Source: Escherichia coli (GTDB lineage: Bacteria > Pseudomonadota > Gammaproteobacteria > Enterobacterales > Enterobacteriaceae). From it: 63,217 nt of DNA. The notes below the pieces were generated by a model. That model ran no database searches and was not told the DNA's origin. It worked only from the letters and a program-made list of their open reading frames with translations. The stretch lies in assembly GCF_003334255.1 (NCBI RefSeq), contig NZ_QOWU01000026.1; one strand, 5' to 3'. Positions 47,456 to 48,147 of this stretch are shown piece after piece (positions within the stretch are counted from its first letter, which is position 1; each line of letters opens with the position of its first letter). The translations under genes were made by a program, and so were the position numbers.

Positions 47456-48147
47456 TAGTTATTAACCCCCCCCCATTGTTCTCCAAATACAAAACCAATT
47501 TCCGCCAGTGCTTCGTCCATTTTGTCGATGAACTCCGGCACCATCTCATCAAAACTCGCCATGTACTTTTCATCCCGCTCGACCACGACATAATGCAGGC
47601 CTTCACGCTTCATACGTGGGTCGTAGTTGGCGAAGTACCAGGCGTCCTTGTCTGTAACCCACATGCTGAATTGCACCTGGGCCATGTAAGCAGGCTTGAT
47701 AGCGTCAAAGCCGCCAAGCCGGAACTTCATGAAGTCGCGGGAAGTGAAGGGGCATTTAAGCTCAAGACCGTTACCGTCGCTGCATAAACCGTCGGGAGAG
47801 CAGGCGGTGCGCATGCTTTCGTCACGAAAAATTATTGGCGTTTCCGCGACGGTAACATCCGCGATAAATTCGAAGAGGGCACGGGCATCATCTTCGTATT
47901 GCTTTCCCCATGCGAGCGACTTAGCGTTAACTTCCGGTGCCACGCCAGTACAAACTTCAGCCAGCAGGGTGTGGAAGTATGACATTTTTGTATCAGGCCA
48001 TTTGCTGCCTGAACGTGGTTTGGCTATGACGTTGTGAACTTCTGAAGCAGTGATAACACCGAGTCTCAGCTTGTGCCATCCATCATCGCCCTGGTCGAGG
48101 CTGGTAATATCCACGCCAGTTCGCTGGAGAATAATTTCTGGTGTCAT
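47455..48147 (-). CDS. YqaJ-type phage exonuclease (lambda Exo-like fold)
   Basis: 230 aa; ..GLELKCPF.. motif typical of YqaJ/viral recombinase exonuclease. Confidence 0.75.
47466..47474. repeat. Homopolymeric C9/G9 tract
   Basis: ccccccccc inside the last codons of the exonuclease gene (..QWGGVNN*), 10 nt from the coupled downstream start. Confidence 0.85.

Follow-up and report, generated by a model that had tools for sequence, protein, structure and literature searches.

The window analysed here is a stretch of DNA of 63,217 bases. Its portion from 38 to 63 kb is a Stx-phage-like lambdoid prophage that best matches GER2, PhiR12_3, and the Oslovirus group of Stx2a phages. A tRNA-Arg(CCT) gene (37754-37828, minus strand) adjoins a 414-aa ORF (37949-39193, plus strand) where the Stx-phage-like similarity begins, which has the appearance of an argW-type attachment site at one end of the prophage. 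Within the prophage, the last codons of an exonuclease gene contain an uninterrupted run of nine G nucleotides, located just before the start codon of the next gene. The run and the three genes that surround it are as follows.

47466..47474, minus strand: G9 homopolymer, running from the second base of the Trp225 codon through Gly226 and Gly227 to the first base of the Val228 codon
47455..48147, minus strand: exo, coding for a lambda-type 5'-3' exonuclease of 230 aa (ORF; lambda Exo alignment; phrog_149 exonuclease)
46868..47455, minus strand: downstream gene of 195 aa, DUF669 / 'single strand DNA binding protein' (ORF; phrog_743, E=6e-68; RefSeq annotations)
48144..49163, minus strand: gene for a RecT-family annealing protein, upstream of exo (phrog_148, E=3e-95; TIGR00616; PF03837 in relatives)

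The exo product belongs to the lambda exonuclease family, as indicated by an end-to-end match with lambda Exo (residues 1-225 against chain residues 1-225 of 226, E=2e-140; PDB 6M9K and 1AVQ), by its assignment to phrog_149, and by PF09588 in relatives. Residues 226-230 (GGVNN) form a tail without homology to lambda Exo. The recT stop codon overlaps the exo start by 4 nt, and a 316-aa form of RecT is annotated in relatives. The partner of this lambda-type Exo is therefore a RecT-family annealing protein and not lambda Bet; the C-terminal part of RecT resembles Bet only weakly (phrog_252, E=1.6e-4), and partner recognition by this Exo may differ from that in lambda. The downstream phrog_743 gene, which carries the DUF669 name in RefSeq for some genomes, is followed by a phrog_204 (YfdP-like) gene and then by a phrog_210 (YfdQ/DUF2303) gene.

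On the plus strand the run appears as C9 at 47466-47474, where the sequence reads ...TTATTAACCCCCCCCCATTG.... The coding strand reads CAA TGG GGG GGG GTT AAT AAC TAA, with the final A of TAA shared with the downstream ATG, and the Exo C terminus encoded at the run is ...GEQWGGVNN followed by the stop. An earlier note on this DNA had placed the run at 47464-47474. The nine-base run is real, but that interval starts two bases too early, because the AA found there on the plus strand is the TT of the Val codon. The ORFs bear out two other statements of the same note, namely that the nine G nucleotides encode the W-G-G at the Exo C terminus (Trp225-Gly-Gly) and that exo and the next gene share an overlapping stop and start, TAATG, with an overlap of 1 nt in the window. 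The last G is separated from the ATG by ten bases and from TAATG by eight.

Apart from this G9, G or C runs in the window reach six at most. Base composition predicts about 0.24 runs of nine or more in the window, which makes the run an outlier, though not an overwhelming one on this measure alone. We consider G9 to be a real feature because every relative found has at least G5 at the exact position, with variable length. The only other homopolymer of nine in the window is an A9 run at 51393-51401 (plus strand).

The joint between two modules

DNA homology to lambda exo stops exactly at CAATGG, whose TGG begins the run. Past this point lambda continues with CGATGA, which supplies an Arg codon and a stop overlapping orf60a, whereas the window continues with GGGGGGGTTAATAACTAATG. 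On the opposite side, homology to the DUF669 genes of HK629, Stx2_EH1965, and an Enterobacter phage begins at codon 4. In those phages the DUF669 homologue is preceded by a Sak4-type ATPase gene, and the sequence there is ...AAGGAAAACGCCGCATGA. The homology limits on both sides define the following segment.

47447..47472, minus strand: junction segment, made up of the G nucleotides that follow the Trp codon, then TTAATAACTA, then the first three codons (ATG GAT GAT) of the downstream gene

This segment is homologous neither to the sequence that follows exo in lambda nor to the Sak4-DUF669 junction of HK629-type phages. Because exo homology ends at CAATGG and DUF669 homology starts at codon 4, the run sits in a joint of some 26 nt between two modules, and this joint is part of neither.

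The arrangement has partial counterparts on each side. As at the lambda exo-orf60a junction (GAGCAATGGCGATGA, with an ATGA overlap), exo is homologous to codon 225 (Trp) and its stop overlaps the next start. However, lambda has an extra codon (Arg), no run, and an unrelated downstream gene. At the Sak4-DUF669 junction of HK629-type phages the downstream gene is of the same family (87% protein identity), its start overlaps the preceding stop, and a purine-rich element is found 9-10 nt upstream of the ATG. In that case, however, the upstream gene codes for a Sak4-type ATPase, there is no homopolymer, and the first codons specify MSN rather than the MDD found here.

No promoter-like or terminator-like site was found on the coding strand at the junction, in keeping with co-transcription of the two genes, and Rfam and tRNA scans gave no match there. 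For the G9, G8, and G6 versions, RNA folding around the junction does not surpass that of shuffled controls (z = 0.1-0.3), which gives no support to a structure masking the start codon or promoting frameshifts.

Rfam matches occur elsewhere in the window. Adjacent matches in the prophage to C4 antisense RNA and to the isrK Hfq-binding RNA, named in that order, lie at 41860-41945 (minus strand, 67.5 bits) and 41971-42049 (minus strand, 68.9 bits). A match to the sok antitoxin RNA at 58719-58893 (plus strand, 118 bits) points to a toxin-antitoxin locus of the hok/sok type within the prophage, and the sRNA STnc100 is matched over its full length at 62696-62912 (plus strand, 149 bits). An sRNA-Xcc1 match at 50665-50753 (minus strand, 69.5 bits) falls within the 5' part of a 292-aa ORF with a TTG start (49989-50867), which may be over-extended.

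Tract length among relatives

At the DNA level, the tract ranges from G5 to G11 in phage records, viral and metagenome contigs, and complete E. coli genomes. The phage records include G9 in GER2, G8 in PhiR12_3, and G6 in TL-2011c, phi191, and O104:H4-type Stx2a phages. Among 28 IMG/VR contigs, 21 carry G6, three G8, two G9, one G7, and one G5. The metagenome contigs comprise three with G6, three with G8, one with G9, and a lone G10 contig with about 2x coverage. The junction is present in 126 of 5,426 complete E. coli genomes, nearly all of which have G6. The exceptions include three genomes with G9 (the Symbioflor strains designated G1/2, G6/7, and G8) and five with the eight-base tract (SCU-104, JNEC-KY203, JNEC-KY177, UCPROB-001, and UCPROB-002).

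Two other observations were made on these relatives. In the record for phage phi191 (KF971864.1), recT and the DUF669 gene are each split into two CDS (306-2829 of the compared piece), whereas these genes are intact in relatives; the record probably carries sequencing frameshifts, which makes it unfit as evidence for natural indels. In addition, a DUF4752 family gene downstream of yfdQ (approximately 7292-7581 of the compared pieces) is marked as frameshifted by PGAP in six of six relatives. This frameshift is common to the SCU-104, JNEC, UCPROB, and Symbioflor prophages, G8 and G9 alike, and is apparently fixed in this prophage lineage.

A larger sample was obtained by exact look-up of Exo proteins bearing the tail predicted for each tract length, covering G4-G14 for the window-type Exo and G4-G11 for the TL-2011c-type Exo. 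The unit of the following counts is the contig, and they include clonally related isolates, such that the events are not independent.

Window-type Exo (Ala101): G4-G6, 0; G7, 7; G8, 132; G9, 65; G10, 37; G11, 13; G12, 2; G13-G14, 0
TL-2011c-type Exo (Ser101): G4, 0; G5, 15; G6, at least 1000; G7, 99; G8, 11; G9, 2; G10, 2; G11, 0

Both length distributions are single-peaked, and multiples of three are not favoured. The commonest and most widely distributed length in the window's lineage is the 'out-of-frame' G8, and the reading frame at the end of exo is therefore not conserved. The G10 and G11 alleles were confirmed in DNA, whereas G12 is deduced from an exact match at the protein level. Neither the IMG/VR contigs nor the exact-protein look-up, which extended down to G4, contained an allele below G5.

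Stops in three frames and the downstream start codon

The run is followed immediately by a short block that closes every reading frame.

47448..47465, minus strand: 18-nt block TTAATAACTAATGGATGA, with stops in three frames and containing the downstream ATG (47453-47455)
47459-47464, minus strand: TAATAA in the block, used by G7/G10
47455-47457, minus strand: TAA in the block, used by G6/G9/G12
47448-47450, minus strand: TGA in the block, used by G5/G8/G11

Stops in all three frames occur in just 0.23-0.26% of the window's 18-mers, and the presence of such a rare block could mean that the arrangement has been selected, pointing to a function. The alleles fall into three classes according to the stop they reach.

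G6/G9/G12: tail ...W(G)nVNN; TAA at -2..0 relative to the A of the ATG; TAATG, with a 1-nt overlap
G7/G10: tail ...WGG(G); TAA at -9..-7, followed directly by a second TAA; 6-nt gap before the ATG
G5/G8/G11: tail ...W(G)nLITNG; TGA at +5..+7; 8-nt overlap with the downstream gene

All of the altered residues lie beyond the last residue shared with lambda Exo, and the alleles differ only in a tail of 2-9 residues. PGAP calls both the 232-aa (G8) and the 230-aa (G9) forms of Exo intact. The placement is not that of an on/off phase-variable tract, given that the run begins at codon 225 of a 226-aa homologue and that the downstream ORF is untouched.

The earlier note had predicted that a one-base slip would change the Exo C terminus and the stop position. 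This is what the alleles exhibit: G8 yields ...WGGLITNG with a stop 8 nt into the next gene, and G10 yields ...WGGG with a stop 6 nt before the ATG. Its further claim that coupling to the next gene would be altered is correct in that the stop position shifts, but all stops remain within -8 to +6 of the ATG and the geometry for coupling is kept. The comparison of relatives likewise leaves the idea of slippage standing, as the tract lengths are not identical and extend from G5 to G12.

The two genes have the geometry of a coupled pair, lying on the same strand with TAATG (-1) in the window and -8 or +6 in other alleles. The G6, G9, and G12 alleles resemble the E. coli gene pairs with -1/-4 overlaps whose coupling has been described (Huber et al. 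2019, 2023), and the TAATG (-1) overlap is one of the two commonest coupling geometries (PMC10666635). Unlike in those pairs, the geometry here shifts among -8, -1, and +6 with tract length. Moving the stop from a -1 overlap to +2 nt lowered reinitiation by 5, 20, or 70% in three E. coli gene pairs, and a gap of +38 nt lowered it by 80-100% in E. coli reporters (PMC10666635). Since all alleles fall within -8 to +6, coupling should persist in every one of them. Its efficiency could differ between the three stop classes, whereas an on/off effect of tract length on coupling is unlikely.

The run might also contribute to initiation more directly. Its 3' edge lies 10 nt from the ATG at every length, and it is the only purine-rich element at the junction with complementarity to the anti-Shine-Dalgarno sequence. 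For tracts of at least G5, the predicted duplex between the run and the 3' end of 16S rRNA has an energy of -9 to -11 kcal/mol, a value that relies on G-U pairs, and the spacer is 10 nt. The HK629 homologue has AAGGA 9 nt upstream of its ATG, in the equivalent place. These characteristics suggest that the run may also serve as a ribosome-binding element for the downstream gene. A 10-nt spacing from run to ATG is at the long end for an E. coli Shine-Dalgarno element, and such a role may be weak given this distance.

One could attribute more to this geometry by proposing that tract length, taken modulo 3, determines which of three positions (-8, -1, or +6) the exo stop occupies with respect to the SSB-like start and thereby alters reinitiation. 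The ratio of SSB-like protein to Exo and RecT would then change, and selection on the stop block would have made slippage a means of adjusting expression instead of abolishing it. Each of the three stop classes is common in nature, with 145 (-8), 67 (-1), and 44 (+6) window-type contigs, the triple-frame stop block is rare by chance, and E. coli reinitiation depends on stop-start distance, as seen in the 5-70% drop at +2 nt (PMC10666635). However, a neutral tract predicts the same pattern. In the large TL-2011c/O104:H4 lineage G6 is close to fixation, and related isolates have the same length as one another, so switching is slow. Moreover, ribosome binding by the run itself may occur and would blunt an effect through coupling. 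We therefore regard such tuning as unlikely. It is quite improbable that the poly-G tract and the triple-stop block together act as a heritable three-position dial setting how much SSB-like protein is made per Exo and RecT. If this were the case, prophage populations would hold standing variation in the relative amounts of their recombination proteins.

Recurrence of length changes and their probable origin

Haplotypes were defined by 1,400 nt on either side of the tract. Identical flanks of 2 x 1,400 nt accompany different tract lengths in a G8/G9 pair (SCU-104 versus the window) and in a G10/G11 pair. In other haplotype comparisons, G8 and G10 are separated by one substitution, as are G8 and G9, whereas G8 and G11 are separated by two and G5 and G6 by three. 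The occurrence of different lengths within identical 2.8-kb flanks indicates that the changes are recurrent. A comparison of 8-kb flanks was uninformative because their outer parts are mosaic replacements, and the analysis was confined to the conserved core. When 19 relatives of the window's lineage are compared over the approximately 3.4 kb of this core, no small indel other than the tract is seen; thus the variation is site-specific and does not reflect general homopolymer noise.

Related isolates share lengths, with all three Symbioflor strains carrying G9 and both UCPROB-001 and UCPROB-002 carrying G8, and therefore switching must be slow on clonal time scales. Non-modal lengths account for 124 of 256 contigs (48%) in the longer-run, window-type lineage versus at most about 11% in the G6 lineage. 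The rate of indels in E. coli rises exponentially with run length (PMC8510543), and the greater variability of the lineage with the longer run fits this dependence. The tract has the hallmarks of a hypermutable homopolymer, including an uninterrupted run of at least about 7 and single-unit polymorphism that has arisen more than once on near-identical backgrounds.

It could be argued that each lineage has one true length and that all of the variation, including the window's G9, consists of homopolymer miscalls made during sequencing or assembly. G/C homopolymers of eight or more are error-prone on several sequencing platforms, coverage of the one G10 metagenome contig is about 2x, and the window and SCU-104 differ by this one base alone over 2.8 kb. 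Indeed, tracts of G8-G11 may be miscounted in some individual assemblies, and this applies to the window's own G9. As an account of the whole pattern, however, an artefact is very doubtful. Lengths of G8-G11 recur in 132, 65, 37, and 13 contigs, with many independent assemblies from different laboratories and sources, and related isolates are concordant in length. In addition, the 3.4-kb core lacks any other variable homopolymer or small indel, and lengths two or three steps away from the mode exist.

A 9-nt homopolymer within a coding sequence is also a motif where RNA polymerase or ribosomes can slip, but programmed ribosomal frameshifting or transcriptional slippage that makes an alternative Exo product is hardly credible here, and an extended or fused product is ruled out, because both alternative frames close within 18 nt, TAATAA shuts the frame of the downstream gene before its ATG, and folding (z 0.1-0.3) revealed no stimulatory RNA structure.

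We favour a model, to which we assign a probability of about 75%, in which the tract is a tolerated hot spot for slipped-strand mutation at a module joint, buffered by stops in all frames and perhaps involved in ribosome binding as well. Replication slippage at the G run would repeatedly add or remove a single G. The population frequencies lead us to infer that these length changes are nearly neutral, and the tract would persist and drift in length owing to their near-zero cost. The tract starts at the last conserved Exo codon (Trp225) and is followed by the 18-nt triple-stop block, so slips touch only a tail of 2-9 residues. Exo always ends at one of three places around the downstream ATG (8 nt beyond it, 1 nt within it, or 6 nt short of it), and every allele retains a geometry compatible with termination-reinitiation coupling. 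The run would probably double as the ribosome-binding element of the downstream gene.

A tolerated hot spot of this kind has much in common with the poly-G contingency tracts of Neisseria, Haemophilus, Campylobacter, and Bordetella. The similarities include an uninterrupted G run of at least eight, changes by single units, single-peaked length distributions, recurrent changes on near-identical backgrounds, and lower stability of the longer run. Unlike those tracts, the run described here resides in the last codons of a gene rather than at a 5' end or in a promoter, and no length silences a gene. It also differs in its E. coli host, a species in which hypermutable homopolymeric loci are few, and in being without a linked phenotype. 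The tract is a further example of a well-known sequence class, best read as an ordinary slippery tract and not as a genetic switch. Hypermutable homopolymeric tracts as a class are described in PMC1891110 and PMC5084427. Among the matches listed for literature on slipped-strand tracts and on the prophage exonuclease, no title or abstract concerned this tract.

For annotation, Stx-phage-like prophages can be expected to differ naturally by one base at this site. Such differences do not warrant calling exo a pseudogene, nor should they automatically be treated as assembly errors. For typing, the site could be a fast-evolving marker with which to sub-type closely related prophages. If the tuning of coupling by tract length were true, the locus would be a rare case of quantitative variation driven by simple sequence in an E. 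coli phage operon. The tract also provides a clean natural example of how a slippery sequence persists in a coding region when the sequence that follows closes all frames.
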